Part shown: in pieces, positions 13,765-30,135 of the stretch | Numbering within the stretch: position 1 is the first letter of the stretch | Layout of the letters: each line of letters opens with the position of its first letter | Origin: Mycolicibacterium smegmatis | GTDB lineage: Bacteria > Actinomycetota > Actinomycetes > Mycobacteriales > Mycobacteriaceae | Direction of reading: 5' to 3' | Assembly: GCF_001457595.1 (NCBI RefSeq) | Contig: NZ_LN831039.1 | Location: forward strand, 4,440,001 to 4,472,000 | DNA: 32,000 nt | Position numbers and translations under genes: made by a program | The notes under the pieces: model-generated | The model's database searches: none | What the model was told of the DNA's origin: nothing | The model's input: only the letters and a program-made list of their open reading frames with translations

Positions 13765-13765
13765 A

Positions 13766-15343
13766 CTATTTCGAGCCGTACTCCTCGGGCGGCTCGGACG
13801 AGTCGACGTGGCCGTTGCTCATGATGGTCAACCCCTCGGGTGATACCTCGTAGCGCGCCCCGTCGGCGGGGTTGACCGCGACGTAGCCGTCGCCCGAACG
13901 CTGGGCGTCGTCGATCTTGAGGTTGGCGCCGTCGCGCAGGCGCTCGCCGCGGTAGTAGTAGCCGCCGGAGTCACGCTCGCAGATGATCGCCAGCGAGGTC
14001 GCCGTGCGGATCAGCGCGGCGGGCGTCGCGTCCGAGTCGCACCGCGCGGTATGCCCGACGAAACCCTGCTCGTCGGTGCCGCTGACGTTCGCGGTGGCCG
14101 ACCGGTTGGACGTCGTGGTGGTCGTCGATTCCGAAGTCGAGGTCGCGCCCTCGGGCGGCGTGATTCCCGTGTTGCCGGTGGAGGCGTTGTCATCACCGCC
14201 CACGAGCATCGTCGCGAGCACCGCGGCGACGCCGAACAGCACCACCGTCGCCACGACGAGCATCATCTGCGTGCGGGTGAACCGTTTCTTGCCCGGCGTC
14301 CGCACGGCGGGAGCCGCAACAGCGGCCGGGGCCGGCGGCGTCGGGGTTCTGCGTGGCGGCGCGGGCACCGACGGGTAGGCCGGCGGGTACGGCGTGAACC
14401 CGGTGTGTTCGGGGTTGGGGTACAACTCGGAGAACTGCCGCGTCGGAGTCGGCGGGCGTCCCGGTGCCTGCGGCGGGGCGGGCTTCGACGGCGGAGCCTC
14501 GCCGGCCGCGGCAGCCGACACCGCGCGCGCCAGTTCCCCGGCCGTGGCGTAGCGCGCGGCCGGGTCCTTGGCCATCGCCGTCGCGATCACCTCGTCGAAC
14601 GCACGCGGGACGCCGCGGCGCATGATGCTGGGCCGCGGCGGCGCGGAGAACATGTGCGCGCTCATCAACTGCCGCAGATCGCCCGCCTCGTACGGCGGCC
14701 TGCCGATCAGTGACTCGTAGACCAGGCAGGCCAGCGCGTAGATGTCGGCGGGCGGGCCGACGGTCTCGCCGGAGAACCGCTCGGGTGCCATGTAGGCGCT
14801 GGAGCCGATCAGCATGCCGGTCATCGTGACGCTGGCCTCACCGCCCACATGGGCGATGCCGAAGTCGACGAGGTAGGCGAAGTCGTCGCCCGTGAGCAGC
14901 ACGTTCTCGGGTTTGATGTCGCGGTGCACCAGGCCGTCGGCGTGCGCGGCGTCCAGCGCCGAGGCCACCTGCGCCACGATCGACGCCGTGCGGCGCGGAT
15001 CGAGCGGGCCGTCGGTGCGCAGGATGTCCTTGAGGCTCGCGCCCTCGACCAGCCGCATGTCGATGTAGAGCACACCGTCGATGTCGCCGAAGTCGTGCAC
15101 CGGGATGACGTGCGGTTCCTGCAGGCGCGCGGCCACCCGGGATTCGCGGCGGAACCGCTCCTGGAAGCGCGGGTCGGCCGCGAACTCGGCCCGAAGGAGT
15201 TTGACCGCGACCTCACGCCCCTTCACCGTGTCGTAGGCGCGGTAGACCTCCCCCATGCCGCCGACACCGATCAGCGACCGCAGTTCGTACGGCCCGAACC
15301 GGGTGCCGAGGCGGGAGGCGCCGTTGGAGGCCATCGGGGTCAT
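13766..15343 (-). CDS. Receptor-type Ser/Thr protein kinase (Hanks type) with single TM helix and small unassigned ectodomain
   Basis: GVGGMGEVY glycine loop, VAVKLL lysine, HRDIKPENVLL, DFGIA, YMAPE. Pro-rich juxtamembrane linker and TM MMLVVATVVLFGVAAVLATMLVGG (aa 360-382). The 143-aa extracellular part contains 2 Cys. SD AAGGA lies 6 nt before ATG 15343. Confidence 0.9.
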   Translation of the reverse strand: MTPMASNGASRLGTRFGPYELRSLIGVGGMGEVYRAYDTVKGREVAVKLLRAEFAADPRFQERFRRESRVAARLQEPHVIPVHDFGDIDGVLYIDMRLVEGASLKDILRTDGPLDPRRTASIVAQVASALDAAHADGLVHRDIKPENVLLTGDDFAYLVDFGIAHVGGEASVTMTGMLIGSSAYMAPERFSGETVGPPADIYALACLVYESLIGRPPYEAGDLRQLMSAHMFSAPPRPSIMRRGVPRAFDEVIATAMAKDPAARYATAGELARAVSAAAAGEAPPSKPAPPQAPGRPPTPTRQFSELYPNPEHTGFTPYPPAYPSVPAPPRRTPTPPAPAAVAAPAVRTPGKKRFTRTQMMLVVATVVLFGVAAVLATMLVGGDDNASTGNTGITPPEGATSTSESTTTTTSNRSATANVSGTDEQGFVGHTARCDSDATPAALIRTATSLAIICERDSGGYYYRGERLRDGANLKIDDAQRSGDGYVAVNPADGARYEVSPEGLTIMSNGHVDSSEPPEEYGSK

Positions 15344-15469
15344 TCACGTCCTTTCGGCCGCCCGGACCGCACGGGACCACCATCCAGGCGGGCACGGCGA
15401 GCGGCGCAGTGGTCCCGGTGACGAGGATAGAGAAGACCCGTCCCCGGCCCCGGGACCACGTCGCGGACG

Positions 15470-16726
15470 TCAGTTGAACGACGAGTGCGGCGCGCCCATG
15501 CCCGGGTCGATCTTCACCGGCCCGGCTGCGGTGGGGGTCACCGGGAAGTCGAAGATCGCCGTCGGGATGTAGACCGTCGCGCACGCGTTCGGGATGTCCA
15601 CCACGCCCGAAAGCCTGCCCTCGATGGGAGCCGCGCCCAGCAACAGGTACGCCTGCTCGGGGCTGTACCCGAACTTGGTCAGGTAGTCGATGGCGTGCAG
15701 GCAGGCCCGCTGGTACGACAGGTGCGAGTCCAGGTAGCGCTGCTCGCCGTCGAGGGTCACCGAGGTGCCCGAGAACGCCAGCCACTCCGAGTACTGCGGA
15801 TCGGTGTTGCCCGGCATGAAGATCGCGTTCTCGCCGACGCCGTAGGTCTCCATGCCGCCGGGGATCACGTCGACACGCAGGTCGATGAAGCCGCCCATCT
15901 CGATGGCGCCGCAGAACGTGATCTCGCCGTCGCCCTGCGAGAAGTGCAGGTCACCGACCGACAGGTTCGCGCCGTCGACGAACACCGGATAGAACACCCG
16001 GCTGCCCTTGGTGAGGTTCTTGATGTCCTGGTTGCCGCCGTTCTCCCGCGGCGGTGCGGTGCGCGCGGCCTCGGCCGCGGCCTTGGTGAACGCGTCGCCG
16101 GTCAGCCCGCCGAGGATCGCGTCCTGCGGTTCGGGCGGCAGTGCCAGCGGCGGCACCCGCTCGGGGTCCGTGGCGATCAGCGCGGCCTCGCGGGCGTTCC
16201 ACTTGGCCAGCAGGCCCGCCGACGGCGCGGTGCCCATCAGACCCGGGTGCACGATGCCGGTGAACTCGACACCCGGGATGTGCCGCGACGTGGCCTTCTG
16301 ACCCGAGAAGTCCCAGATCGCCTTGTAGGCGTCGGGGAACTGTTCGGTGAGGAAACCGCCGCCGTTCTGCGTCGGGAAGATGCCCGTGTAACCCCAGCCC
16401 TGGCCCGCGAGCGGTCCGGAATCCTCCTGCGGGATCGGGCCGACGTCGAGGATGTCGACGATCAGCAGGTCGCCGGGCTTGGCGCCCTCGACCGCGATCG
16501 GGCCGGACAGCACGTGCACGGTGGTCAACGGCGCGTTGAGGATGTCGTCGGCGGAATCGTCGTTGTGAATCGCGCCGTCGAACCACTCGCGGCAGTGCAC
16601 GCGGAACGAGTCACCTTTCTTGACCGTCACGGCCGGCGGGATGTCGGGATGCCACCGGTTGTGGCCCAGTTTCTCCTGCTCGGTGAACTTCTTGGTGGAG
16701 TCCAGGGGAAATACGACGTCAGGCAT
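15470..16726 (-). CDS. fmdA: Formamidase (FmdA/AmdA acetamidase-formamidase family, long FmdA-like form)
   Basis: 418 aa. The N-terminal region (GHNRWHPDIPP...GDSFRVHCREWFDG...NDDSADD...VHVLSGPIAVEGAKPGDLLIVDILDVG) closely follows the FmdA formamidase pattern as I recall it. Strong SD AAGGAG lies 6 nt upstream. Confidence 0.9.
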   Translation of the reverse strand: MPDVVFPLDSTKKFTEQEKLGHNRWHPDIPPAVTVKKGDSFRVHCREWFDGAIHNDDSADDILNAPLTTVHVLSGPIAVEGAKPGDLLIVDILDVGPIPQEDSGPLAGQGWGYTGIFPTQNGGGFLTEQFPDAYKAIWDFSGQKATSRHIPGVEFTGIVHPGLMGTAPSAGLLAKWNAREAALIATDPERVPPLALPPEPQDAILGGLTGDAFTKAAAEAARTAPPRENGGNQDIKNLTKGSRVFYPVFVDGANLSVGDLHFSQGDGEITFCGAIEMGGFIDLRVDVIPGGMETYGVGENAIFMPGNTDPQYSEWLAFSGTSVTLDGEQRYLDSHLSYQRACLHAIDYLTKFGYSPEQAYLLLGAAPIEGRLSGVVDIPNACATVYIPTAIFDFPVTPTAAGPVKIDPGMGAPHSSFN

Positions 16727-16747
16727 GTGTTCTCCTTGTCGGGACTG

Positions 16748-17035
16748 CTAGGGGCGGGGCAGCTTCTGGTGAAGCGGGTTGGTGGTGACCTTCTGTTTCT
16801 GTCGCCGCGTCCCCGGCGAGGGAGACGAGACGACGGCCGGGCGGTCCGCGGTGGCTCGGGTGGCGTCCTGCAACGCCATGCCGACCCCACCGCGCCCGAT
16901 GTTGGGGGCCGAGATCAGTCGCCGCGCCGCACCGTTGCAGCTTGGGCACTCGATCACGTCGGGACGAGAACTCATCGAATACAGCTGCTTGGTGGTGCCG
17001 CAGCCGGACTCACACCGAAATACGTAGAGAACCAA
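16748..17035 (-). CDS. FmdB-family zinc-ribbon putative regulatory protein
   Basis: N-terminus LYVFRCESGCG...VIECPSCNG gives CxxC...CxxC in the FmdB arrangement. TTG start is preceded by GAGGAA at 5-nt spacing. The stop lies 21 nt upstream of the formamidase ATG. Confidence 0.7.
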   Translation of the reverse strand: MVLYVFRCESGCGTTKQLYSMSSRPDVIECPSCNGAARRLISAPNIGRGGVGMALQDATRATADRPAVVSSPSPGTRRQKQKVTTNPLHQKLPRP

Positions 17036-17180
17036 CAGGTTTCCTCGCTGTCCGATTGGGGTGAAGACACGGCCAACCTTACCGAGGAGTGCGGGTTCAG
17101 GCGCGGTAGTTGGATAACAAAACAGCCTCTACGGATCACGGTGTAGCGCCGCACAGGCTGTACACGGGGTGGCGGCGCGC

Positions 17181-18458
17181 TCAGCGCGACCGGCGCGTAC
17201 CGCTGGTCTGCCGAATCCCGTTGTGCCGCACCGCGTTGGGACCCGGACCGGGACCCGGGGTGGCCAGATCCCCTGCGACTCCGGCGGGTTTCGCGGCCTC
17301 GCCGCCTTGTTCGCGCATGCCCATGTTGCGCGCGGCCCACAGTGCGATGCGGAAGTTGACGCGGTCGGATTCGTCGAGCGGATTGGCGCCGGTGAGTTCG
17401 GCGATCTTTGCCAGCCGGTTCCGCAGCGTGTTGACATGCACGTAAAGCTGGGTCGCGGCGGCGTTGATGTCGTTGCGGGGCGCCAGGAACGCTTCCAGCG
17501 AGGACACCAGATAGGAGTTGTTGACCTTGTCGTGCTCGACCAGCGGCGCGATGAGGCGGTGTACGAACGGCACCAACCGCACCTTCGGGACGGCAGCCAG
17601 CAGACCGTCGAGGGTGGCGATCTCGTCGATGTGCACCGCGCGGCGCCACCGGGTGGCCTCGTGCAGGGCTTCGAGGGCCTCGGGGATGGCGTAGACCATC
17701 GCCGAGGCGTCGGGAGCGATCGCGACACCGCATGACAGCGGCGACGCGGCCAGCTCGGCGCGGAAGTTCTCGGTGTGCGCACACAGCGAGACGATGCGGT
17801 CGTCGTCGAGCAGCGCAACGGCGCCGCCGTGCTTGTCGACCAGGTCGTGGACGGCGGTGTGGGCGTCGGAGTTGAACGCGCACACCGCAACCGGTGCGCC
17901 GGCCAGTCCGCGTTCGGCCAGTGCGTTCTCCACCGGGCCGACGCCCAGGGTGCCCGCGACGAACCATCGCAGGATGGACCCGAGGTCACCCTCCCGCTTG
18001 CCGGCCTCGCGTTCGGCGGCGCGGTGGGCCTCGGCCCAGTCGACGATCCGCCGGAACGGGACGTCGGGCGGCAGGGTGAGCAGCGGGAGGTCGCGGTCCA
18101 GGCACGCCTGCACCAACGCGGCGGGCGGTTCGTCGAACAGGTCACCCAGACCCACCATCAGCGCGGTGACGCCGCGGTCGCTCAACGTCGCGACGTAGCG
18201 GCGGATGACGTCGTCGGGCTCCTGGGCCACGGGCACGCCGACGCTGAGGATCAACTCGCCGCCCGACAGGTACTGCGACGGATCGGCGAGTTCGGTCGGG
18301 TAGACATACCGGATCGGCCGGTCGCCATCACCGATCGGCGTGAGCGCCTCGACCTGCAGGCCGGACTGTGTCAGCAAAGCGTGCAGCCGGACGGTGCCGT
18401 CGTGGGGAGCAACGTCGATCCCCGCGGCGCCACCGTCGCTCGATGTCTCGCGCGACAT
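17181..18458 (-). CDS. PucR/CdaR-family transcriptional regulator
   Basis: C-terminal PucR-type HTH (LYVHVNTLRNRLAKIAELTGANPLDESDRVNFRIALW) and an N-terminal purine-catabolism-regulator-like domain. ATG 18458 is preferred over TTG 18461. Confidence 0.85.
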   Translation of the reverse strand: MSRETSSDGGAAGIDVAPHDGTVRLHALLTQSGLQVEALTPIGDGDRPIRYVYPTELADPSQYLSGGELILSVGVPVAQEPDDVIRRYVATLSDRGVTALMVGLGDLFDEPPAALVQACLDRDLPLLTLPPDVPFRRIVDWAEAHRAAEREAGKREGDLGSILRWFVAGTLGVGPVENALAERGLAGAPVAVCAFNSDAHTAVHDLVDKHGGAVALLDDDRIVSLCAHTENFRAELAASPLSCGVAIAPDASAMVYAIPEALEALHEATRWRRAVHIDEIATLDGLLAAVPKVRLVPFVHRLIAPLVEHDKVNNSYLVSSLEAFLAPRNDINAAATQLYVHVNTLRNRLAKIAELTGANPLDESDRVNFRIALWAARNMGMREQGGEAAKPAGVAGDLATPGPGPGPNAVRHNGIRQTSGTRRSR

Positions 18459-18518
18459 CAACGACTCGCGACCATAACTGCACTCATGGCTGCGTAGTCT
18501 AGGACCACACCCCGTTCG

Positions 18519-19466
18519 CTATAGATCGAGTGTTAATTTCGCGTTTCCTAGAGCCCGCGAGACGCAAATCATCATCGTCGTGTTGGCCTGTCGTTCCTCA
18601 TCGGTCAGCAAATCATCGCGGTGATCAACCTCACCTGCGAGCACCTTGGTCTCGCACGTGCCGCAGAACCCCGCGGTGCACGAGTAGGGCGTCTCGGGCG
18701 CGACCGCGAGCACGGCGTCGAGCACGCTCGTGTCCTCCGGCACGGTCACCGTCACCCCGGTGCGGGCGAGTTCCACGTCGAACGCGCTGTCGTCGGCGGC
18801 GCCCTCGGCGGCCTCGCGGGCGCCCGCGCTGAACCGCTCGGTGTGCAGGAACACGTCGGGGTGCTCGGCGGCCAGGGACTGCACCGCGTCGAGCATCGGC
18901 GCGGGCCCGCAGCAGTACACGCGGGTGCCTGGTGCGCTTGCGGCGAAGGCCGTGGCAAGGTCGGGGATGCCGTGGGTGTCCTGCGGGAGCACCTCGACCT
19001 CGCCGAACCCCGCGAGCCGGTCCAAGAACGCCATCGACGCCCGTGTGCGACCGCCGTAGACGAGCCGGAACGGCACCTCCTCACCCGCGGCGCGCAGCGA
19101 CTCCATCATCGCGAGGATCGGCGTGATGCCGATGCCGCCCGCGATGAACAGGTACCGAGGCGCCTCGACGAGCTCGAAGTTGTTCTTCGGCTCCCCCACT
19201 TCGAGGATCTGCCCGATGCGCAACTGCTCGTGGATCTCTCGCGATCCGCCGCGGCCGTCGGCGACCAGCAGGACCGCGACGGTGTAGGAGTACGGATCGT
19301 CGAGCGCACCGCACAGCGAGTACTGCCGCACCCGCCCCGACGGCAGCGTGATCGGCAGGTGCGCACCGGCTGCCCACGCGGGCAGCCGGTGGCCGTCAGG
19401 GTCACGCAGTGTCACCGAGATGACACCCGCGGCCTCCAGGCGCAGTTGTGTGACCTGGAGTTTCAT
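18519..19466 (-). CDS. PDR/VanB-type oxidoreductase (FMN + NAD(P)H + C-terminal plant-type 2Fe-2S)
   Basis: RQYSL flavin motif, GGIGITP NAD motif, C-terminal CTAGFCGTC...C cluster motif. Its ATG overlaps the Rieske gene stop (ATGA at 19463-19466). Confidence 0.9.
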   Translation of the reverse strand: MKLQVTQLRLEAAGVISVTLRDPDGHRLPAWAAGAHLPITLPSGRVRQYSLCGALDDPYSYTVAVLLVADGRGGSREIHEQLRIGQILEVGEPKNNFELVEAPRYLFIAGGIGITPILAMMESLRAAGEEVPFRLVYGGRTRASMAFLDRLAGFGEVEVLPQDTHGIPDLATAFAASAPGTRVYCCGPAPMLDAVQSLAAEHPDVFLHTERFSAGAREAAEGAADDSAFDVELARTGVTVTVPEDTSVLDAVLAVAPETPYSCTAGFCGTCETKVLAGEVDHRDDLLTDEERQANTTMMICVSRALGNAKLTLDL

Positions 19467-20557
19467 TGTGCCGGTGCGGCCGTCGCGGCCCGCGCATGAC
19501 CGTTGGTCTGCGCGTTCGCCGCATCGGCCTCGGTGTCGGTCCCGGCGTCGAGACCGCGTTCCTGCCGGATGGTCTGCACCGCGAACTGCGTGGCGCGCCG
19601 GTAGTTCAGCGTGTAGATGTCGGCGGGTGCCGACACCTCGAACGCCTGACCGGCCAGCGGAACCTCCTTGGGCTCAAGGCCTTCCAGGACCGGCGTGTCC
19701 TCGTTGAACACCTTGGTCTCGATCTCGAGGATCTCGTCGACGGTCCCGCCGCGGAAGTCCTTGTCGGTGGCGACGCCCCAGAAGATGATGCACTTGTCGT
19801 AGCTCACCGGCGACGGGAAGTCCACCAGGTAGCGCTTGCCGATCTCCGGGCCGAAGTCGTAGAGGATCGTCGCGATACCGGGCGCATACGAGTGGTAGTG
19901 CATCCAGGCGTCGCCGACGCCGGAGAAGTCCGACTCCTCGACCTGCGCGTAGAAGTAGGACGCCCACACCTCACGGCCCTCGCGCTTGACCTCGAGATCG
20001 GGGACGACGGGGTTGACGTCGCCCATCGACGGCTCGTGCACGAACGGGAAGTGCGCCATGTCGCGGAAGTTCTCGGTGGCCGCCATGAACCCGCAGTCGG
20101 CGTGGATCGGATCCGCCGGACGCCATTCCAGCTCCAGATCCGCGATCTCCGGCGGATTGGGCAGGTCGAACACCGGGTCGCCCAGGCAGGTCCACACGTG
20201 CTCGAACCGCTCGATGACGGGATAGGACTTGATGGCGGCCTTCGGCGGGATCCGTCCGCCTTCCTTGAGCGACGGGATGGCCGAGCACTGGCCGGTCTGC
20301 CCGTCGAACTGCCAGCCGTGGTACGGGCAGGCGATGGAGTCGCCGACCACCTTGCCGTCGGCGAGGTTGGCGCCGCGGTGGATACAGCGCCGGTCGGTGA
20401 CGCGGGCCGCGCCGGTGGAGTCGCGGAACACCACCAGGTTGTGGTCGAGCAGCGTCGCCGACTGCGGAGTGTCGATGTCACACGAGCGTGCGACGACGAA
20501 CCACACGTGCTGGTAGGCCTCGCGCAGTTTCTCGGGGGTCAATACGTCCTGCTTCAT
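19463..20557 (-). CDS. Rieske 2Fe-2S non-haem iron oxygenase, catalytic subunit (VanA/PaO-like, no beta subunit)
   Basis: Rieske motif CIHRG...CPYHGWQF and mononuclear iron motif ENFRDMAHFPFVH. SD AGGAGA follows the upstream stop, with a 12-nt gap between the genes. Confidence 0.9.
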   Translation of the reverse strand: MKQDVLTPEKLREAYQHVWFVVARSCDIDTPQSATLLDHNLVVFRDSTGAARVTDRRCIHRGANLADGKVVGDSIACPYHGWQFDGQTGQCSAIPSLKEGGRIPPKAAIKSYPVIERFEHVWTCLGDPVFDLPNPPEIADLELEWRPADPIHADCGFMAATENFRDMAHFPFVHEPSMGDVNPVVPDLEVKREGREVWASYFYAQVEESDFSGVGDAWMHYHSYAPGIATILYDFGPEIGKRYLVDFPSPVSYDKCIIFWGVATDKDFRGGTVDEILEIETKVFNEDTPVLEGLEPKEVPLAGQAFEVSAPADIYTLNYRRATQFAVQTIRQERGLDAGTDTEADAANAQTNGHARAATAAPAQ

Positions 20558-20569
20558 GGTGTCTCCTAA

Positions 20570-21463
20570 CTACTCCGCGACAGGGGTCAGTTCGGGCCGG
20601 GTCAACGTGCGCGGCGTGAGCTTTTGCGCGCGAACGTGTTCGGCGATCTGGGACATGCCCGCCACCCACACGTCGTCCATCGCGCACACCTCGGCGATGA
20701 ACTCGCGCAGCGCGGCCGCGCGGCCGGGCCGTCCGCTGAGGAACGGGTGGTTGGTGAGCACCCAGGCGCCGCCGATGTCGCGCATCGCGTTCAGTTCGGC
20801 CCGCCACAGTTCGATGGCCTTGGCCGGGGTCTCGATCAGGCCGGTGCCGGAGAAGTCCGGCACGAAGCAGTACTGCTGCCAGTCGTCCAGCGCCCAGCTG
20901 ACCGGCAACTCGACCAGCGATCCGTCCCCCACCGCGAGTTCGTAGGGGTGATCGGAGTCCATCAGCGTCGAGTCATAGAGGAATCCGAACTCGGCGAGCA
21001 GTTTCGGTGTGTGCCAGTTCATCTCCCACATCGGCGCGCGGTAGCCGACCGGGTGTACGCCAGCGACCTCCTCCAGCGCCTCGATGCCGCGGGTGAGGAT
21101 CTTGCGCTCGGTGTCCTCGTCGGCGCCCACGAGCGACTCGTGCAGGTACCCGTGGTGGGCGATCTCGTGCCCGGCACGCGCGATCGAGCGGATCGGCTCG
21201 GGGTGACGGTGCGCGGTGTAGCCAGGGACGAAAAATGTTCCGGGAACGTTGAACTCGTCGAGGATCCCGAGCAGCCTCGGCACACCCACCAGCGGGCCGT
21301 AGGCCTGGTGGCTCATGGTTCCCATCCGGTCGGCGAACGCCGGGTCGGTGGTCAGCAGCGGCGATTCGGCGTCCACGTCGAAGGTGAACGCGACGGCGCA
21401 GGTCTTGCCGTCCGGCCAGGAAACCGGGGCGGCGGGCGTCAATTCCGTCGTCGAGTCGGTCAT
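20570..21463 (-). CDS. Polysaccharide deacetylase (CE4) family hydrolase
   Basis: CE4 motifs FTFDVD, HHGYLHE and YRAPMWE. Its ATG overlaps the upstream stop by 1 nt (TGATG). Confidence 0.85.
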   Translation of the reverse strand: MTDSTTELTPAAPVSWPDGKTCAVAFTFDVDAESPLLTTDPAFADRMGTMSHQAYGPLVGVPRLLGILDEFNVPGTFFVPGYTAHRHPEPIRSIARAGHEIAHHGYLHESLVGADEDTERKILTRGIEALEEVAGVHPVGYRAPMWEMNWHTPKLLAEFGFLYDSTLMDSDHPYELAVGDGSLVELPVSWALDDWQQYCFVPDFSGTGLIETPAKAIELWRAELNAMRDIGGAWVLTNHPFLSGRPGRAAALREFIAEVCAMDDVWVAGMSQIAEHVRAQKLTPRTLTRPELTPVAE

Positions 21464-22422
21464 CAGCGGGCCTTCCTTCCGAACACACTCAACAGTTCCC
21501 AGGTCACGTTGGCCGCGGCCACGGCGGTGATCTCGGCGTGGTCGTAGGCCGGGGACACCTCGACGACGTCGGCGCCGATCAGGTTCACCTGATCGAGACC
21601 ACGTACCACTTCGAGCAGTTCGCGGCTCGACATGCCGCCGGCCTCAGGCGTTCCCGTGCCGGGGGCATGAGCGGGATCGAGGACGTCGATGTCCACCGAC
21701 ACGTACACCGGTGCGTCGCCCACACGTTCGCGGATGCGCTCGATCACGCCGTCGGAACCGAGCTTGGTGATGTCGCGGCAGGTGATCACCGAGAAACCGA
21801 ACTTGGCGTCCTCGACCAGATCCTGCTTGTCGTAGATGGACCCGCGCACGCCGACGTGCATGTTGGTCTCCTGCAGCAGGCCCTCCTCGAAGGCCCGGCG
21901 GAACGGCGAGCCGTGCGTGAGGTCGGCCCCGTAGTAGGAATCCCAGGTGTCGAGGTGGGCGTCGAAGTGCACCAATGCCACCGGGCCGTGCACGGCGTGG
22001 GCGGCACGCAGCGACGGCAGCGCCACCGAGTGGTCACCACCGAGGACCACCGCGCGGGTGCCCTCGGACAGCAGCGCGGTCAGTTCCGCGGTCACCTGGT
22101 CGACGGCCTGGGCGATGTCGAACGGGTTGCACGCGATGTCACCGGCATCGGCGAACTGGCACACCTGGAACGGGGCGATGTCGAGTTCGGGGTTGTAGCC
22201 GCGGACCAGCCGCGACGCCTGACGAATCGCGTTGGGGCCGAACCGCGCACCGGGCCGGTAGGTGACGGCGCTGTCGAACGGCACGCCCACCACCGCCACG
22301 TCGGCGTGGGAGACATCCTCCAGCCGGGGCAGACGGGCGTAGGTCGTCCAGCCGGCGTACCGCGGCTGCACCTGCGGATCCACCGGCACCACGATCGCGT
22401 CGCGGCTCTTGTCGTTGGTCAT
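21463..22422 (-). CDS. Agmatinase/guanidinobutyrase-type ureohydrolase (arginase family)
   Basis: 319 aa with the full Mn-ligand set: GGDHS, HFDAHLDTWD, SVDIDVLDP, GTGTPEAGG. Size and layout resemble guanidino-acid hydrolases. Confidence 0.9.
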   Translation of the reverse strand: MTNDKSRDAIVVPVDPQVQPRYAGWTTYARLPRLEDVSHADVAVVGVPFDSAVTYRPGARFGPNAIRQASRLVRGYNPELDIAPFQVCQFADAGDIACNPFDIAQAVDQVTAELTALLSEGTRAVVLGGDHSVALPSLRAAHAVHGPVALVHFDAHLDTWDSYYGADLTHGSPFRRAFEEGLLQETNMHVGVRGSIYDKQDLVEDAKFGFSVITCRDITKLGSDGVIERIRERVGDAPVYVSVDIDVLDPAHAPGTGTPEAGGMSSRELLEVVRGLDQVNLIGADVVEVSPAYDHAEITAVAAANVTWELLSVFGRKAR

Positions 22423-22433
22423 GAATGCCTTTC

Positions 22434-23087
22434 CTAGACGCGGTTACGGGACTGACCACCGTCGGCGTTGACGATCTGTCCCACAGCTGCTTTCAGTTCC
22501 GGTCGGCTCAACAGCCCGATGACGCCTGCGACCTGGTCGACGCTGCCGATCCGGTCCAGCGGCGGTGTGGCGCCCTCGAGGTCGCACACCGACCACTCCG
22601 AGTCGACGTTCCCGATCGCGACAGCGTTGACGCCGATGCCGAACGCGCCGAAGTCGCGGGTCAGGGTCTTGGTGAGCGCGACGATGCCGCCTGCCGCGGT
22701 CGCCACCGCCGACAGTTTCGCCCCGCCGACGTGCCACCGCGAGGTGGTGAGCACGATGCGCCCGCCGGTTCCGTTGTCCCGCATGTGTTCTGCGGCGGCC
22801 TGCGCGTAGAGGAAGCTTCCGGTGAGGGTGGTGTCGACGTGCTTCCAGAACTCGGCCATCGACTGCTCGGTGAACGCCGCGACGTGCGGCAGCCCGTGTG
22901 CGACCACCAGGACGTCGATGCCGCCCATGCGCTCGACGGCCCGGCGTACCGCGTCGCGCACCGCGGCGCGGTCGGCGTGGTCGGTGTCGGCCGGCGGCGC
23001 GGCGGTGACCGCGCCGCGTGCGGTGAAGTGATCGTTGACGGCCACACCGAGTTTGGTGTCGGCGCCGGTGATGAGTACGCGTGTCAT
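22434..23087 (-). CDS. SDR-like protein lacking the catalytic Tyr and Lys (probable non-catalytic partner subunit)
   Basis: Rossmann-like N-terminus VLITGADTKLG. When aligned on the shared VNAVA(P/I)G segment, YAAAK of the neighbouring SDR corresponds to VATAA here. The start lies 1 nt after the upstream stop (TGAcATG). Confidence 0.75.
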   Translation of the reverse strand: MTRVLITGADTKLGVAVNDHFTARGAVTAAPPADTDHADRAAVRDAVRRAVERMGGIDVLVVAHGLPHVAAFTEQSMAEFWKHVDTTLTGSFLYAQAAAEHMRDNGTGGRIVLTTSRWHVGGAKLSAVATAAGGIVALTKTLTRDFGAFGIGVNAVAIGNVDSEWSVCDLEGATPPLDRIGSVDQVAGVIGLLSRPELKAAVGQIVNADGGQSRNRV

Positions 23088-23088
23088 G

Positions 23089-23796
23089 TCAGATCACCGT
23101 TCCGCTGTTGACCGACAACACTTCTCCGCACAGGTTCATGTCCTCCTCCAGCAGCGCCCGGACCATCTCGGCCACCTCGGTGGGCAGCGCGATGCGTCCG
23201 GCCGGCAGTGTCTGCACGAACTCCTCGGCCCGCTCCCATGAGTCCGGGGGCAGCAGTGGGGTGTCGCAGGGCCCCGGTGCGACGGCGTTGACGATGATCC
23301 CGTCGGGGGCCACCTCGACGGCGATGCTGCGCAGCAGGCTCAGCGCGGCCGCCTTGGCGGCCGCGTAGTGCGCGTCGTTGCTGCCGCCGCCGATGGCGCG
23401 CTCGGAGGCGATGCCGACGATGCGGCCCCGGCCCTGTTCACGCATGTCGGGCAGAACCGCCCGGCACACGTGGGCCAGGCCGCCGACGTGCACGCGCAGC
23501 ATCCGCTCCCACGACGGTTGGTCGATGTCGAGGGCGGGCGTCTCCTGATAATGCCCGGCGCAGACCACCGCGGCGTCGATGCGGCCGAGCGTGTCGCGCA
23601 CGGTGGCCACCGCGTCGGTGACCTCCCGCTCGTCGGCGACGTCGGCGATCAGCCACAGGTCGTTGTCCGGTGCGGGTTCCCGCGAGATGGACGCCACGGC
23701 CCATCCCCGCTCGCGCAGCAGCGCGGCGATGGCGGCGCCGATGCCGCTGCCTGCACCCGTGATGACGACGACAGGCTTGTCGGTGAGGGTGCTCAT
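23089..23796 (-). CDS. SDR-family oxidoreductase (canonical)
   Basis: TGAGSGIG, catalytic S...YAAAK, and VNAVAPGP. Its ATG overlaps the permease stop (ATGA at 23793-23796). Confidence 0.85.
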   Translation of the reverse strand: MSTLTDKPVVVITGAGSGIGAAIAALLRERGWAVASISREPAPDNDLWLIADVADEREVTDAVATVRDTLGRIDAAVVCAGHYQETPALDIDQPSWERMLRVHVGGLAHVCRAVLPDMREQGRGRIVGIASERAIGGGSNDAHYAAAKAAALSLLRSIAVEVAPDGIIVNAVAPGPCDTPLLPPDSWERAEEFVQTLPAGRIALPTEVAEMVRALLEEDMNLCGEVLSVNSGTVI

Positions 23797-25271
23797 GCCG
23801 GTTGCACCACCGCGTCGTCATCGTCATTGGACGGGGCATCGGTGTCCGGATCGACCGCCGCGGGCCGGTCCGCCACGTTCCTGACCTTCACGATCACCGC
23901 GCCCAGCGCCAGGATCGCGCCCATGGCGACGAAGAAGCCCCAGTTCAGATACCACGCGTCGGACACCGTGCGGGGCCAGACGATGTTGACGAACTCGAAG
24001 CCGGCCCACAGCACCGCCAGCACGGCCACCGGGGTGCTGAACTTGCCCAGGTTCCACGGTCCGGGGACCCACTTGCCGCGCAGACGCGCGACCAGACCGG
24101 TCACCAGCGGGAACAGGAACGCCAGGTAGTAGCCACCCGCGGTGAACGTCACGAGCACCGAGTACACGTCGGTGGCCGAGATCAGGTAGACGAACGCGCC
24201 GATGACGGTGGTGACGATGATCGCCGTGATCGGCTGCGCCTCGGCCTTGGACAGCTTGACCAGGAACTTCGACGCGGGCAGCACCTCGTCACGGGCGAAG
24301 GACCAGATGACGCGCGATGCGGACGCCTGCAGCGCCAAAAAGCTTGCCAGGAACCCGATCACGAAAGCGAACAGGATGGGCTTGACCGCGGACTCCCCCA
24401 GCGCGCTGCTGAGCACGTAGGCCACCGGGTCGGCTTCCTCACCGGAGATGATCTTGTCGAAATCGGGCACCGCCAGCGTCACCGCGAGCGACGCGTAGGC
24501 GATCACGATCGCGATGAACGCGACCGAGAACAGCATCGCCTTCGGCACGTTGCGGCGAGGTTCCTTGACCTCTTCGGCGATGGCGCCCGCGCTCTCGAAG
24601 CCGAGGATCGACCATCCGGTGAACGCGAGGGCGGCCAGGAACGGCCCCGAGACGTAGGCCCACGACCATCCGCTGGTCAGGTCGATGCCGTGGAAGATCG
24701 CGTCGAACCCGTGGTGGCGGTGGAAGATCAGCAGGTAGGTGCCCAGGCCGATCGACGCGACGATCTCGGCGCCGATACTCGCGGCCATCAGGGCCTTGAG
24801 GAACCCGCGGCCCAGGATGTTGGCACCGGTACCCGCGAGCAGGACGAAGAGGGCCACGATGCTCTGCTGAACCGCCGTCGGGCTCTCGATGCCGACCAGT
24901 TGCGCCAGGAAGCCGGCACCCGCGTAGGCAACCGTGGCCATGATGATCACCAGCGCCCACATGTACACCCAGCCGGCGAACCACCCGGCGACGTTGCCCG
25001 CAAGGCGTTTGGTCCACTGGTAGATCGAGCCTTCGAAGGGCCAGCGCGACACCAGGTCCGCGAATGCGAGCGCGACGATGCACTGGCCGATCCCCACGAT
25101 GACGAATGTCCACCAGAAGCCGGGTCCGGCCGTCGAGAGGGACAGGCCGTAGATGCCGTACATCGCCACGATCGGCGAGATGAACGCGAATGCAAACGCA
25201 AACGCCGACCAGAGCGAGAATTCTCGCTTCAATTCCGCTGGTGCGGAACCATTTTGACGATCCGACGTCAC
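23793..25271 (-). CDS. APC-superfamily amino acid/polyamine/organocation permease
   Basis: 492 aa, about 12 hydrophobic segments, with N-terminal FSLWSAFAFAFAFISPIV...GPGFWW typical of APC permeases. GTG start is preceded by AAGGTGG. Confidence 0.9.
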   Translation of the reverse strand: MTSDRQNGSAPAELKREFSLWSAFAFAFAFISPIVAMYGIYGLSLSTAGPGFWWTFVIVGIGQCIVALAFADLVSRWPFEGSIYQWTKRLAGNVAGWFAGWVYMWALVIIMATVAYAGAGFLAQLVGIESPTAVQQSIVALFVLLAGTGANILGRGFLKALMAASIGAEIVASIGLGTYLLIFHRHHGFDAIFHGIDLTSGWSWAYVSGPFLAALAFTGWSILGFESAGAIAEEVKEPRRNVPKAMLFSVAFIAIVIAYASLAVTLAVPDFDKIISGEEADPVAYVLSSALGESAVKPILFAFVIGFLASFLALQASASRVIWSFARDEVLPASKFLVKLSKAEAQPITAIIVTTVIGAFVYLISATDVYSVLVTFTAGGYYLAFLFPLVTGLVARLRGKWVPGPWNLGKFSTPVAVLAVLWAGFEFVNIVWPRTVSDAWYLNWGFFVAMGAILALGAVIVKVRNVADRPAAVDPDTDAPSNDDDDAVVQPA

Positions 25272-25385
25272 CTATCCCACCTTTCGCTGCCTCGATGACA
25301 CGGGGGAAGTATGGCCATCTGAGGAGGCGCTCGTCGCGGTGAACCGGCCAAACCGGGTGAGGCGTACAGTCGGGCCGTGCGCCGT

Positions 25386-25399
25386 TGTAGAGCTCTACA
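25386..25399. promoter_or_regulatory. Perfect 14-bp palindrome TGTAGAGCTCTACA in the divergent region between the APC-permease operon and the response regulator
   Basis: Read directly from the sequence. It is relatively AT-rich for this DNA and lies 115 bp upstream of the permease GTG and 182 bp upstream of the regulator GTG. Confidence 0.45.
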
Positions 25400-25580
25400 T
25401 CGCGGCTCGCGACCGCCGATGGCGCGATCTGTGGGAAATCTGGCCCACCGTAGGTTTCGCGCGCCCCGGATCCGGTCGCACACTGGCCCAAGAGGGGTCG
25501 GCGCAGGCCGACATGCTGAACCTGAAATCTCCGAGGAACCGTTTTTTTCAACAGGTTTGGAGGAAAAGGGGTGAGATCCG

Positions 25581-26225
25581 GTGCGAGTGGTCATCGCCGA
25601 CGACGACGTCTTGCTGCGAGAAGGCCTGGCGAGCCTGCTCGACCGGGCGGGCATCGACGTCGTGGGTCAGGCCGGTGACGCCCGGCAGGTGCTGCATCTG
25701 GTCCGCGAAAAGAACCCCGACCTGGCCATCGTCGACATCCGGATGCCGCCCACCTTCACCGACGAAGGCCTGGGTGCCGCACACGCGATCCGCAGCGATT
25801 CGCCCGGCACCGGAATCCTGGTGCTCTCCGCGCACGTCGAGGTCGAGGACGCCATGGAGCTGCTGGCCGACGAACGCGGTGTGGGCTACCTGTTGAAAAC
25901 CCGGGTGACCGCTGTGGCCGACCTGATCGACGCGATGCACCGCATCGCCGACGGCGGTTCGGTGGTGGACCCCGTTGTGGTGACCGAATTGATTGCCGCC
26001 CATCGGCGCAACGACCCCCTGACCTGCCTCACCGCCCGTGAACGCGACGTGCTGAAACTGATGGCGGAAGGCCGGTCGAACACCGGGATCGCGCGACGCC
26101 TCTGGGTGGCCGAGGGCACGGTGGAAAAGCACATCCAGCGCATCCTGACCAAGCTGGGCCTCCCCGAGGCCGCAGACGACCACCGCAGAGTCCGCGCGGT
26201 CATCGCATTCCTGAACACGCGGTGA
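25581..26225 (+). CDS. NarL/FixJ (LuxR-type) response regulator, no adjacent histidine kinase
   Basis: The receiver domain has ADDD, the phospho-acceptor context IVDIRMP, and a conserved Lys (YLLK). The C-terminal LuxR HTH is LTARERDVLKLMAEGRSNTGIARRLWVAEGTVEKHIQ. Confidence 0.9.
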   Translation: MRVVIADDDVLLREGLASLLDRAGIDVVGQAGDARQVLHLVREKNPDLAIVDIRMPPTFTDEGLGAAHAIRSDSPGTGILVLSAHVEVEDAMELLADERGVGYLLKTRVTAVADLIDAMHRIADGGSVVDPVVVTELIAAHRRNDPLTCLTARERDVLKLMAEGRSNTGIARRLWVAEGTVEKHIQRILTKLGLPEAADDHRRVRAVIAFLNTR

Positions 26226-26329
26226 CACCCCCGCGCCGGTCCGCCAGGAGCCCATATCGATTAGGTGACAAGGGCGCAACACCCATGGCGCTGCTCATCT
26301 GAGCACTTACTCTCGGATGAGGAGAGCAA

Positions 26330-26974
26330 ATGGTCACAGATCAGAGTGCCGCAATGTCGTTCACCGCCGGGACAACCGGCCTGGTGGTGATAGACCCGTA
26401 CAACGACTTCATCTCAGAGGGTGGCAAGGTGTGGGACCGGTTGCGCGGGGTCGCCGAGGCGATCGGCTGTGTGCCGCACATGATCGAGATGACCGAGGCC
26501 GCACGCGCGTCGGGCATTCCGGTGTTCTATGCGCTGCACCGGCGTTACCGCCCCGGCGACTATGAGTCGTGGCGGTATGTCGCGCCGATCCAGCGGGCCG
26601 CCTGGTCACGCCGGACCTTCGAGTACGGCTCGTGGGGCGGTGAGATCCACCCCGACCTGGCGCCGCGCCCCGGTGACATTGTGGCCCAGGAACATTGGTG
26701 CTCCAGCGGGTTCGCCAACACCGACCTGGACATGCTGCTCAAACGCCACGGCATCCACCAGATCATCGTCGTCGGCCTCATCGCCCACACGTGCGTCGAG
26801 GCCACCGTGCGCTACGGCGCCGAACTGGGTTACCAGGTGACGCTCGTGCGCGACGCCACGGCCGATTATTCGGTCGAGGAGATGCGCGCCGCCCTCGAGG
26901 TGACCCTGCCCAACTACGCCAGTGCGATCGCGTCGACCGACGAGGTGATCCACGCCATCGCGGGAATGCGCTGA
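26330..26974 (+). CDS. Isochorismatase-family cysteine hydrolase
   Basis: LVVIDPYNDF (catalytic Asp region) and IAHTCVEAT (nucleophile Cys). SD GAGGAG lies 6 nt upstream of the ATG. Confidence 0.85.
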   Translation: MVTDQSAAMSFTAGTTGLVVIDPYNDFISEGGKVWDRLRGVAEAIGCVPHMIEMTEAARASGIPVFYALHRRYRPGDYESWRYVAPIQRAAWSRRTFEYGSWGGEIHPDLAPRPGDIVAQEHWCSSGFANTDLDMLLKRHGIHQIIVVGLIAHTCVEATVRYGAELGYQVTLVRDATADYSVEEMRAALEVTLPNYASAIASTDEVIHAIAGMR

Positions 26975-27126: not shown

Positions 27127-29052
27127 GTGAACGATCTCGAGCCGTTCTCGCCCTCGATCGACTGGAGCGACGAACTGGTGCACTCACTGTGGTGGCTGGC
27201 GCAGGCCTGGACCATCGCGGCGCTGTGCACGCTGGCGGTATTGGTGCTGCTCGCGCGGTACACGACATGGGGCAGGCAGTTCTGGACCGTCACGGGTGCC
27301 TACTTCACCGGGCGGCGCAGCGTGCGGGTGTGGTTCGTGCTCGGCGCGATGCTGCTGTCGGTCATCGTCGGCGTACGCCTGTCGGTGCTGTTCAGCTACC
27401 AGAGCAACGACCTGTACTCGGCCGCACAGATCGCCGTGCAGGGCTACGCGACCGGCGACGACGTGGTGAAGGACTCCGGCGTGCGGGGCTTCTGGATCTC
27501 ACTGCTGACGTTCTCGCTGCTCGCGGCGATTCTGGTGACCCGTGTGCTCGTCGACCTGTTCATGACGCAGCGGTTCATGCTGGCCTGGCGGACCTGGCTC
27601 ACCGACCGGCTCACGGGCGACTGGCTCGACGGCCGCGCGTACTACCGCAGCCGGTTCATCGACCAGACCATCGACAACCCGGACCAGCGCATCCAGTCCG
27701 ACATCGACATCTTCACCGCGCTGTCGGGCCCACAGCCCAACACCCCGCACCAGACCAGCAACGGCACGCTGCCGTTCGGGGCCATCTCGTCGATCGTGTC
27801 GGTGGTGTCGTTCACGTCGATCCTGTGGAACCTGTCGGGTGAGCTGGACGTGTTCGGTGTGCAAATCCCGCGCGCGATGTTCTGGTCGGTGTTCGTCTAC
27901 GTCGCGTTCGCGACCGTGATCGCGTTCTGGCTCGGCAGGCCGCTGATCCGGCTGTCGTTCAACAACGAAAAATTCAACGCCGCGTTCCGCTATGCCCTGG
28001 TACGCCTGCGGGACGCCGCCGAATCGGTCGCGCTGTACCGCGGCGAGAAGGCCGAGCGACGGCAACTGCGGGCGTTCTTCGCGCCCGTGGTCGACAACTA
28101 CAAGCGCTTCGTCAACCGCACCATCGTGTTCACCGGCTGGAACCTGTCGATGAACCACATCATCATCCCGTTGCCGTGGCTGCTGCAGGCGCCGCGGCTG
28201 TTCGCCGGCCAGATCCAACTGGGCGCGGTCACACAGTCGGTGACCGCGTTCGGCGCGATCCAGGACGCGTTGTCGTTCTTCCGCAACTCCTACGACACGT
28301 TCGCGGGCTACCGCGCGTCGATCATGCGTCTGCACGGGCTGGTCACCGCCGACGAGCAGGGCCGCGCGCTGCCGATGGTCCACGTCGAGAACGCCCGGAC
28401 AGCCGTCGTCGAACTCGACGACGTCGAGGTGCGCAACCCGGCCGGCGAGGAACTGGTGACCGGCCTGAGCCTGCGGTTGCATCCGGGCGCGGCGATGATC
28501 ATCACCGGCAAGTCGGGTACCGGGAAGACCACCCTGCTGCGCAGTTTGGCGCAGTTGTGGCCCTACGCCTCAGGCACCATGCGCTGCCCGCGGGGCCGCA
28601 ACGAGACGCTGTTCCTGTCGCAGCTGCCCTATGTCCCGCTCGGGGATCTGCGCACCGTGGTGTCCTATCCGCACGAGCCCGGCGACCTTCCCGACGGCGC
28701 GCTGCGCGACGCGCTGCTGGCGGTCGCGCTACCCCGCCACGCCGACCGACTCTCGGAGGTCAACGACTGGGCCAAGGTGCTCTCCCCCGGCGAGCAGCAG
28801 CGCATCGCGTTCGCCAGGGTGTTGCTCACCAGACCCAAGGTTGTGTTCCTCGACGAGGCCACCTCGGCATTGGACGAACCTTTGGAGTTCATGATCTACG
28901 GCCTGGTGCGGCGCGAACTGCCCGACACGGTGTTCGTCAGCGTCACCCACCGCACCACGGTGAACCGCCACCACGAGCAGCGCCTCGAACTCCTCGGCGG
29001 CGGGCGGTGGCGCCTGGGCCCCGTCGACGAGGCCGCGCCGGTTCCCGTGTGA
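27127..29052 (+). CDS. bacA: SbmA/BacA-like ABC transporter (TMD-NBD half transporter, Rv1819c type)
   Basis: 641 aa. The N-terminus PSIDWS...AWTIAALC...WGRQFW, then [14 protein letters not shown] and [22 protein letters not shown], match my recollection of mycobacterial Rv1819c. The NBD has [16 protein letters not shown] and [19 protein letters not shown] lies 8 nt before GTG 27127. Confidence 0.85.
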
Positions 29053-29109
29053 GCAGCGGACTTTCGCATCCAGGCAGCGCGAAGGCGGCGGGCATACCAG
29101 GATGTGATC

Positions 29110-30123: not shown

Positions 30124-30135
30124 AAAGGACCAGCC

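Follow-up and report, generated by a model that had tools for sequence, protein, structure and literature searches.

A conserved gene block of Mycolicibacterium smegmatis with a predicted role in the catabolism of a guanidine-bearing compound

Gene content, conservation and modularity of the block

The analysed window, a 32,000-nucleotide (nt) stretch of the Mycolicibacterium smegmatis genome (contig NZ_LN831039.1, positions 4,440,001 to 4,472,000), carries on its minus strand a block of seven open reading frames (ORFs) corresponding to MSMEG_4371-4377, numbered from a reductase gene to a permease gene (Table 1). Locus tags were assigned through the coordinates in the supplement of Petridis 2015 (mc2155 position = window position + 4,439,250), and the numbering is anchored by a formamidase (15470-16726, MSMEG_4367), FmdB (MSMEG_4368), MSMEG_4372 ('capreomycidine hydroxylase'), a LuxR regulator (MSMEG_4378) and an amidase (about 29108-30121, MSMEG_4381). 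The ureohydrolase of the window shares 99% identity with its cluster representative and differs from the mc2155 sequence, which marks the source as a sister strain. The GC content at third codon positions of all seven ORFs is 0.81-0.91. Horizontal transfer was considered on the basis of base composition, which gave no signal (GC 0.64-0.73 throughout the window).

A preliminary description of this DNA had proposed a tightly packed seven-gene operon running from the permease to the reductase. The ORF listing returned exactly these seven minus-strand genes, and recomputation of the six junctions gave, in agreement with it, -4 nt (ATGA, 23793-23796), +1 nt (TGAcATG, 23085-23091), +11 nt (GGAAAGG before ATG, 22423-22433), -1 nt (TGATG, 21461-21465), +12 nt (AGGAGA, 20558-20569) and -4 nt (ATGA, 19463-19466); the gene order and every family it had named are backed by Pfam and NCBIfam, and all the catalytic motifs it had quoted were located in the translations. 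Close packing is normal in this genome (the plus-strand neighbours at 27127-30897 abut with 0-nt gaps) and by itself is therefore no evidence, but the block is raised above chance because the same gene order is kept in about 11 Mycolicibacterium species, two Streptomyces species and many metagenome contigs. A scan of positions 15000-26500 found no terminator-like site on the minus strand; together with the single conserved promoter and operator 5' of the permease gene, this is consistent with the operon-like arrangement that had been claimed. Its extent, however, needs to be redrawn: the seven genes hold, whereas the unit is probably larger, with eight genes, since the reductase stop codon is followed, at a distance of 57 nt and with no terminator found, by a PucR-family regulator gene of the same orientation, and the conserved core comprises five genes (permease, two short-chain dehydrogenases/reductases (SDRs), ureohydrolase and CE4 hydrolase), to which the Rieske oxygenase and reductase are accessory. 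Among the NCBIfam equivalog models searched over the seven proteins, none was passed except the generic 'agmatinase'; the best matches of the permease, a urea-carboxylase-system permease and an amino acid/choline class, were both far under cutoff.

Table 1. Genes and regulatory features of the block, with window positions
Feature	Position	Strand	Remarks
APC-superfamily permease (MSMEG_4377), 492 aa	23793..25271	-	Pfam AA_permease_2, 1.7e-46; predicted substrate uptake
Classical SDR dehydrogenase (MSMEG_4376), 235 aa	23089..23796	-	Pfam adh_short, 9e-41
SDR paralogue without catalytic Tyr/Lys (MSMEG_4375), 217 aa	22434..23087	-	AVATAAGG in place of YxxxK; TGADTKLG in place of TGxxxGxG
Arginase-family ureohydrolase (MSMEG_4374), 319 aa	21463..22422	-	Pfam Arginase, 1.5e-98, 330 bits; predicted guanidino-acid amidinohydrolase
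CE4/NodB-fold metallo-amidohydrolase (MSMEG_4373, PDB 3RXZ), 297 aa	20570..21463	-	Predicted amide or lactam hydrolase
Rieske non-heme-iron oxygenase, alpha-only VanA_C type (MSMEG_4372), 364 aa	19463..20557	-	Pfam Rieske and VanA_C
Phthalate-dioxygenase-reductase (PDR)-type reductase (MSMEG_4371), 315 aa	18519..19466	-	Pfam NAD_binding_1 and Fer2; predicted electron supply to the Rieske oxygenase
PucR-family transcription regulator, probable eighth gene	17181..18461	-	Pfam PucR and HTH_30
Palindromic operator TGTAGAGCTCTACA (TGTAG-N4-CTACA)	25386..25399	.	Conserved in 11 species, one mismatch in M. septicum; unique in the window
CTGTA half-site element, between operator and promoter	25365..25369	-	Invariant alignment columns
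-10-like hexamer CATACT within the invariant block CCATACTT	25308..25313	-	Invariant in 11 species; about 36 nt before the start codon
Shine-Dalgarno sequence GCGAAAGG of the permease gene	25280..25287	-	Invariant in 11 species; 8 nt before the GTG at 25271

Genome searches with the Rieske protein as query retrieved all eight genes of the block, with protein identities of 63-90%, from about 11 Mycolicibacterium genomes, where the formamidase gene lies next to it, and the same eight genes at 49-79% identity in two Streptomyces species; the PucR gene keeps its position 3' of the reductase gene in both genera. In both Streptomyces (L082 and L085, 1-4400), the block adjoins KduI/IolB-like and thiamine pyrophosphate-enzyme/IolD-like genes and a GntR regulator gene, an inositol-catabolism-like set whose proximity may be coincidental. 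Jatrophihabitans telluris harbors the five-gene module without the oxygenase. A metagenome scan with an alignment of CE4 orthologues yielded at least 80 loci, of which 40 were informative upstream (at least 4.2 kb 5' of the CE4 gene) and 45 downstream (at least 2.2 kb 3' of it). Among the loci listed, the permease, two SDR, ureohydrolase and CE4 genes follow one another in the window's order in 24 of the 40, and in 25 the module starts with the permease gene. Rieske and reductase genes lie downstream of CE4 in a single one of the 45 listed, a Mycolicibacterium-like contig, suggesting that the oxygenase catalyzes an upstream, optional step; this rare add-on is seen in Mycolicibacterium, the two Streptomyces species and a Pseudomonas variant. 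The gene-neighbourhood comparison thus bears out a gene order conserved across genera (Mycolicibacterium and Streptomyces), with the five-gene core extending to Jatrophihabitans and metagenome loci, and this core appears to be common in environmental Actinobacteria. In addition, 8 of 30 five-gene loci among those listed have, next to the module, a gene for a class-III omega-aminotransferase, a gene for a CoA-acylating (methyl)malonate-semialdehyde dehydrogenase (TIGR01722, 695 bits; cutoff 448), or both, an arrangement indicating that the product is probably beta-alanine or 3-aminoisobutyrate.

Among the loci listed, CE4 genes of 53-57% identity occur with an NCS1 transporter gene, with or without a ureohydrolase gene and without SDR genes, and Flexivirga has PucR, ureohydrolase and NCS1 genes only. 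The module therefore appears to be layered: the SDR pair surrounds a centre of CE4 and ureohydrolase, and the Rieske system forms the outermost layer. The order and overlap of the ureohydrolase and CE4 genes do not vary across genera. At locus L097 (7113-10873, 12753-17016), a creatininase-family gene precedes SDR-SDR-CE4, and a second, inverted permease-SDR-SDR-ureohydrolase copy lies beyond a transposase gene. The reductase gene comes after the Rieske gene in all variants examined, with the exception of L081 and L084.

Pseudomonas sediminis and a metagenome genome (Rieske 61-68% identity) encode the SDR, its paralogue, CE4, the Rieske oxygenase (and reductase), a DUF1989 protein and an M20 amidohydrolase, together with a LacI regulator and a LivJ/UrtA-like ABC transporter. 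Here DUF1989 and the M20 enzyme, which passes the 'allantoate amidohydrolase' subfamily model, stand in the ureohydrolase's place. The DUF1989 protein resembles urea-amidolyase-associated proteins, which we take to be carboxyguanidine deiminase subunits. The carboxyguanidine deiminase CgdAB of the guanidine carboxylase pathway shares the DUF1989 family with this variant and would offer an alternative means of removing the guanidino group, but the variant's protein is a single subunit scoring 83-88 bits against cutoffs of 206-285. At the metagenome locus L093 (5294-8796), a DUF1989 gene lies between the ureohydrolase and CE4 genes of a standard five-gene module. A further cluster, in Paraburkholderia, P. 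resinovorans, Streptomyces LHD-70 and others (Rieske about 50%), consists of permease, CE4, C45 Ntn-hydrolase, VOC protein, SDR, Rieske and reductase genes and probably represents a related but different pathway. This seven-gene cluster (L012-L022, e.g., L014 5295-11943) is well conserved in Paraburkholderia, Pseudomonas, Vogesella and Streptomyces and is devoid of a ureohydrolase gene. In an Ancylobacter metagenome-assembled genome (MAG; Rieske 60% identity), the Rieske and reductase genes have as neighbours genes for a 412-aa arginase-family protein and for HupE/UreJ (nickel) and NCS1 transporters; the locus (L083, 4944-7764 and 9145-12856) also encodes a 278-aa protein without a family match, a layout like that of nickel-dependent guanidine/metformin hydrolase loci. 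Pseudonocardia carries the Rieske gene alone, at 72% identity.

Active sites and nearest relatives of the encoded enzymes

The ureohydrolase MSMEG_4374 contains the motifs GGDH, DAHLD and SVDIDVLDP and the superfamily's metal ligands (H131, D154, H156, D158, D244 and D246) and catalytic residues (H170 and E288). Its best solved relatives are proclavaminate amidinohydrolase (PAH, 263 bits), GpuA (250 bits) and GbuA (249 bits), followed by E. coli SpeB (199 bits), and the formiminoglutamase (HutG) model TIGR01227 was not passed (159 bits against a cutoff of 229). R72 of GbuA, equivalent to R105 of human GDAH, was proposed to reach into the neighbouring active site and bind the acid group of the substrate (Sinn et al. 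2022, PMC9772407). In HMMER alignments, Arg74 of MSMEG_4374 aligns with GbuA R72 and GpuA R69, a position held by His in PAH, Ala in 4DZ4 and Trp in SpeB, so that the basic residue of the guanidino-acid hydrolases (GbuA/GpuA/GDAH) is present and the SpeB-type specificity region is not. Across 57 cluster-associated copies this residue is Arg in 51 and Lys in five, the exception being the long nickel-type Ancylobacter protein, which favours a guanidino acid over agmatine as substrate. MSMEG_4374 thus looks like a guanidino-acid hydrolase, and the plain agmatinase that the preliminary description had named, in combination with unrelated substrates for the other genes, as fatal to its proposal is argued against by Arg74.

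GbuA and GpuA of Pseudomonas aeruginosa and human AGMAT/GDAH share with MSMEG_4374 the family, the metal ligands, the carboxylate-capping Arg and a full-length alignment (E = 1e-73). However, these enzymes act on free guanidino acids from arginine pathways, whereas here the guanidino acid is probably made within the pathway, because the ureohydrolase gene overlaps the CE4 gene and follows two SDR genes. The ureohydrolase would probably act last, on the guanidino acid produced by the CE4 enzyme.

The CE4 protein MSMEG_4373 corresponds end to end to PDB 3RXZ (E = 4e-207), the next matches being H. pylori PgdA and PuuE allantoinase. It carries the FDVD, HHGYLH, YRAP and NHP motifs of CE4/NodB metallo-deacetylases, and D29, D31, H99, H103, H104, H108, R142 and H239 are invariant across the cluster variants. 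3RXZ keeps all five catalytic and metal-binding residues and has been described as functionally uncharacterised (PMC10967932). PuuE and PgdA belong to the same fold subgroup (CE4 NodB1.2), but PuuE is metal-independent whereas MSMEG_4373 retains the metal ligands, and MSMEG_4373 has no polysaccharide context. The PuuE allantoinase equivalog TIGR03212 was not passed (91 bits against a cutoff of 425).

The two SDR proteins differ sharply. MSMEG_4376 has an intact cofactor motif (TGAGSGIG) and catalytic Ser...YAAAK, in keeping with the Asn-Ser-Tyr-Lys tetrad of classical SDRs, whereas MSMEG_4375 has TGADTKLG and, at the Tyr-x3-Lys position, AVATAAGG, so that it lacks the classical features; the missing Tyr and Lys had been noted from the translation. 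The degenerate motifs are shared by every orthologue, including those of Streptomyces and Pseudomonas, which marks MSMEG_4375 as a conserved non-canonical partner and not a decaying gene; it is probably a non-catalytic partner subunit and may form a heteromer with MSMEG_4376.

MSMEG_4372 carries the motifs CIH...CPYH and ENFRDMAHFPFVH, and C58, H60, C77, H80, H169, H174, E280 and D287 are invariant in the alignment of orthologues. The adjacent reductase contains RQYSL, GGIGITP and CTAGFCGTC (Cx4Cx2C); with the cluster ligands, the 2-His-1-carboxylate iron site and a neighbouring FNR-like reductase bearing a plant-type ferredoxin domain, the pair has the features of a two-component Rieske/PDR-type system. 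The nearest solved relatives are SxtT and GxtA (115 and 113 bits; E = 3e-32), aligned over residues 18-322 (about 80% of the length). Like the saxitoxin enzymes SxtT and GxtA and the viomycin enzyme VioQ, MSMEG_4372 is an alpha-only Rieske oxygenase with a VanA_C-type catalytic domain. The substrates of SxtT and GxtA are cyclic guanidinium rings, in which sp3 carbons are hydroxylated, and VioQ likewise catalyzes C-H hydroxylation next to a guanidine nitrogen; these three enzymes are biosynthetic, however, and the match of SxtT and GxtA to MSMEG_4372 is distant. The name 'capreomycidine hydroxylase' given to MSMEG_4372 in a published microarray table is inherited, after VioQ. An attempt to derive the substrate from the SxtT binding residues (Gln226, Asp239 and Thr276) was dropped, as these are not conserved.

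Regulatory region and flanking genes

Alignment of the 250 nt 5' of the permease gene from 11 Mycolicibacterium species revealed four conserved blocks in an otherwise diverged region (Table 1). The -10-like CATACT hexamer was not reported by a simple sigma-70 consensus scan and is assigned by conservation and position. With at most one mismatch, the palindrome recurs 118-162 nt 5' of the permease gene in Jatrophihabitans and four metagenome modules, in the divergent region between the PucR and ureohydrolase genes of Flexivirga, and just after the PucR gene, 5' of fmdB, in several Mycolicibacterium species; it occurs in 5 of 29 non-Mycolicibacterium permease upstream regions, against a background of about 0.008 per 380 nt. 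The regulator has the N-terminal PucR and C-terminal HTH_30 domains (72 and 61 bits) of its family, and a divergent PucR gene lies beside at least 13 of 30 five-gene modules. TGTAG-N4-CTACA is thus probably an operator bound by the PucR-type regulator.

A riboswitch was rejected, no Rfam family matching in the window or the 5' region. The operon genes are not listed in the accessible part of the supplements to the M. smegmatis transcription start-site map. Nor were they found in the nitrogen-limitation tables, where the differentially expressed list jumps from MSMEG_4368 to MSMEG_4381, and GlnR chromatin immunoprecipitation data list no site between MSMEG_4294 and MSMEG_4501. Membership in the general nitrogen-stress regulon was therefore rejected, only the flanks MSMEG_4367/4368 and MSMEG_4381/4382 being induced; the absence of the operon genes from tables that include their flanks fits substrate-specific induction.

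Directly 3' of the PucR gene, on the minus strand (15470-17035), lie genes for FmdB and FmdA, the latter a true formamidase equivalog (700 bits) induced 3.1- to 3.7-fold by nitrogen limitation. A degenerate palindrome with two mismatches, TGTGCGGCGCTACA, stands 5' of fmdB at 17142-17155, and the formamidase may be co-regulated with the operon as a possible member of its regulon. FmdA and FmdB are directly downstream in nine Mycolicibacterium loci, whereas no formamidase adjoins the Streptomyces, Jatrophihabitans or metagenome modules; the formamidase was accordingly rejected as an obligate member, its adjacency being confined to Mycolicibacterium. Further out (11593-15343), the genes flanking the formamidase encode a Ser/Thr protein kinase and the DUF4185 protein MSMEG_4365, which is repressed when nitrogen is limiting; no operon link was seen.

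On the other side, between the permease gene and an ABC transporter gene, the plus strand (25581-26974) codes for the response regulator MSMEG_4378, of the LuxR type, and for an isochorismatase-like hydrolase with a weak likeness to RutB/biuret hydrolase. This pair looks like an M. smegmatis-specific insertion, because the ABC transporter gene abuts the permease promoter region in the six other Mycolicibacterium species in which it was detected. The following plus-strand genes (27127-30897) encode the SbmA/BacA-like ABC transporter, an FmdA_AmdA-family amidase (MSMEG_4381) and an SDR (MSMEG_4382), the last two being induced by nitrogen limitation. In other species, the ABC transporter/amidase/SDR operon runs divergently from the permease operon, with which it would have the operator region in common. 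At the metagenome locus L116, an amidase 60% identical to MSMEG_4381 adjoins CE4 and ureohydrolase genes.

Proposed pathway and alternative readings

We favour, tentatively and with a little less than even confidence, the reading that the minus strand from 17181 to 25399 forms an operon, induced by its substrate, for the catabolism of a small guanidine-bearing molecule that is probably cyclic or hydroxylated. The compound would be imported by the APC permease, and the Rieske oxygenase, with electrons from the reductase, would hydroxylate a C-H adjoining a guanidine nitrogen. The active SDR, probably paired with its Tyr/Lys-less paralogue, would then oxidize the alcohol or hemiaminal to the carbonyl level. 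In the resulting acyl-guanidine, which for a cyclic compound would be a lactam, the CE4 metallo-hydrolase would cleave the amide bond to free a carboxylate and yield a linear omega-guanidino acid. The ureohydrolase would release urea from this acid and leave a beta-alanine- or 3-aminoisobutyrate-type omega-amino acid, destined for a transaminase and a semialdehyde dehydrogenase encoded elsewhere. The operon would be switched on by the PucR regulator at the TGTAG-N4-CTACA operator. Candidate substrates include cyclic guanidines of the 2-iminohexahydropyrimidine type, cyclised guanidino-aldehydes and creatinine-like acyl-guanidines. This order of steps would account for the optional oxygenase, the fixed ureohydrolase-CE4 pairing, the carboxylate-binding Arg and the transaminase and dehydrogenase neighbours. 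The guanidino substrate already suggested by the preliminary description is likewise favoured by PAH, GpuA and GbuA as nearest relatives of the ureohydrolase, by its GbuA-R72-type Arg, by DUF1989 and M20 in the Pseudomonas variant, by the kinship of the Rieske oxygenase to SxtT and GxtA and by the arginase-family gene beside its orthologue in Ancylobacter.

The predicted logic resembles that of dihydropyrimidinase/beta-ureidopropionase, hydantoinase/carbamoylase and HutI/HutG, in which a cyclic amide is hydrolysed and a one-carbon nitrogen group is then removed; HutG is itself an arginase-family member. A further parallel is lactol dehydrogenase followed by lactonase, and the reductive pyrimidine route ends in beta-alanine or 3-aminoisobutyrate, which then pass to a transaminase and (methyl)malonate-semialdehyde dehydrogenase. 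The known pairs, however, use a ring opener of the amidohydrolase superfamily, a ureido group and, for pyrimidines, a reductive entry, whereas here a CE4 enzyme, a guanidino group and an oxidative SDR/Rieske entry are envisaged, so that the likeness is one of resemblance only. A bolder, and as a whole unlikely, extension is that the five-gene module represents a widespread actinobacterial pathway converting cyclic guanidines, or cyclic hemiaminals of guanidino-aldehydes (2-iminohexahydropyrimidine type), via a cyclic acyl-guanidine lactam to beta-alanine and urea. It would be the guanidino counterpart of pyrimidine/hydantoin catabolism, with CE4 as a lactamase, an obligate active/inactive SDR pair and, in Mycolicibacterium and Streptomyces, a Rieske add-on as the catabolic mirror of VioQ.

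Several points weigh against the proposed guanidine pathway. Each reaction, their order and the substrate are deduced from family membership and gene neighbourhood. The SxtT contacts Gln226 and Asp239 are replaced by Thr230 and Tyr243 in MSMEG_4372, so the guanidinium binding mode is not conserved. The transaminase and dehydrogenase neighbours occur at just the 8 of 30 loci and are absent beside the M. smegmatis operon. The L093 locus, which has both ureohydrolase and DUF1989, weakens DUF1989 plus M20 as a clean functional replacement of the ureohydrolase. Five-gene modules without the oxygenase imply a substrate that already bears a hydroxyl, and no abundant natural compound of this kind was identified. 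The ureohydrolase passes agmatinase models (TIGR01230, 247 bits against a cutoff of 174; NF002564, 321 against 302), although this leaves its specificity unsettled because GbuA and GpuA are nearer in the PDB than E. coli SpeB. Finally, the neighbouring formamidase, with the same palindrome in several Mycolicibacterium species, would fit the release of formamide instead of urea.

This last point leads to an amidine substrate, for which the arginase-family enzyme would be HutG-like and release formamide or a short amide, to be hydrolysed by the neighbouring FmdA. HutG belongs to the same family, the formamidase lies directly downstream in the nine Mycolicibacterium loci and the palindrome 5' of fmdB could tie the two together, but the chance of this reading is slim: the HutG score stays under its cutoff while agmatinase models were passed, modules outside Mycolicibacterium have no formamidase beside them, and the formamidase responds to nitrogen limitation whereas the operon genes are missing from the induced list. 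A somewhat unlikely but serious contender assigns the Rieske enzyme an N- or O-demethylase role (NdmA/B- or VanA-like), feeding a methylated analogue, e.g., of the creatine or methylguanidine type, into the same five-gene core instead of supplying the SDR's alcohol. NdmA, NdmB, dicamba demethylase and the VanA_C domain among the Rieske relatives, the optional nature of the Rieske/reductase pair, and orthologues at 60-72% identity that occur without an SDR or CE4 gene speak for it. Nevertheless, the top solved matches are C-H hydroxylases (115 bits, against 80 for demethylases), and all three multi-gene variants with an oxygenase (actinobacterial, Pseudomonas sediminis-type and Paraburkholderia-type) carry SDR and CE4.

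Salvage of oxidised purines or ureides, e.g., 5-guanidinohydantoin, the guanidino analogue of allantoin, has been put forward as a route on chemical grounds (PMC12623156) and would make the CE4 enzyme an allantoinase-like ring opener and the ureohydrolase allantoicase-like. We consider it a slight prospect: CE4 is related to PuuE, the regulator belongs to the PucR (purine catabolism) family, an M20 enzyme of the allantoate amidohydrolase type occurs in the Pseudomonas variant and NCS1 transporters lie beside the lower-identity CE4 genes, but the PuuE model falls far short of its cutoff, the transporter here is of the APC type, the (methyl)malonate-semialdehyde dehydrogenase neighbours indicate a C3 amino acid rather than glyoxylate, and the SDR pair would be left without a role. 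Ordinary agmatine or polyamine catabolism, with the other genes serving unrelated substrates, is very improbable. In its favour are the agmatinase models, which MSMEG_4374 passes, and the agmatinase label borne by every database copy. Against it stand the guanidino-acid-type Arg74 at the position of the Trp of SpeB, the order and overlap of the ureohydrolase and CE4 genes, which do not change between genera, the lack of putrescine-pathway genes, and the presence of another agmatinase (MSMEG_4459) in M. smegmatis. Scarcely credible is a biosynthetic cassette for a guanidine-containing natural product, with a VioQ-like oxygenase and a PAH-like hydrolase; the top PDB match of the ureohydrolase and the name of the Rieske gene would agree with it, but the first gene encodes an uptake permease, the regulator is of a catabolic type, the 32-kb window holds no nonribosomal peptide synthetase, polyketide synthase or other synthase, and some versions adjoin a transaminase and a semialdehyde dehydrogenase.

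Literature searches on these genes, the enzyme combination, the locus tags, 3RXZ, VioQ and DUF1989 with Rieske found no functional study, and the cluster is absent from the survey of ureohydrolases in the paper on metformin hydrolase. No publication or curated model was found that assigns the operon or the five-gene module, so the claim that the set matches no characterised pathway stands. The component families are all known; what is new is their combination and the predicted chemistry.

Guanidine hydrolase, metformin hydrolase and carboxyguanidine deiminase are recent additions to bacterial guanidine metabolism, and to our knowledge the fate of most natural guanidine compounds in soil is not known. 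The M. smegmatis operon offers a tractable test bed, combining an amenable host, the 3RXZ structure, a conserved operator for reporters and a modular pattern that predicts the order of steps. Its solution would give a function to hundreds of proteins labelled 'agmatinase', 'polysaccharide deacetylase' or 'SDR' in genomes and metagenomes, and could uncover a new route to a nitrogen source and a new activity of the CE4 fold.

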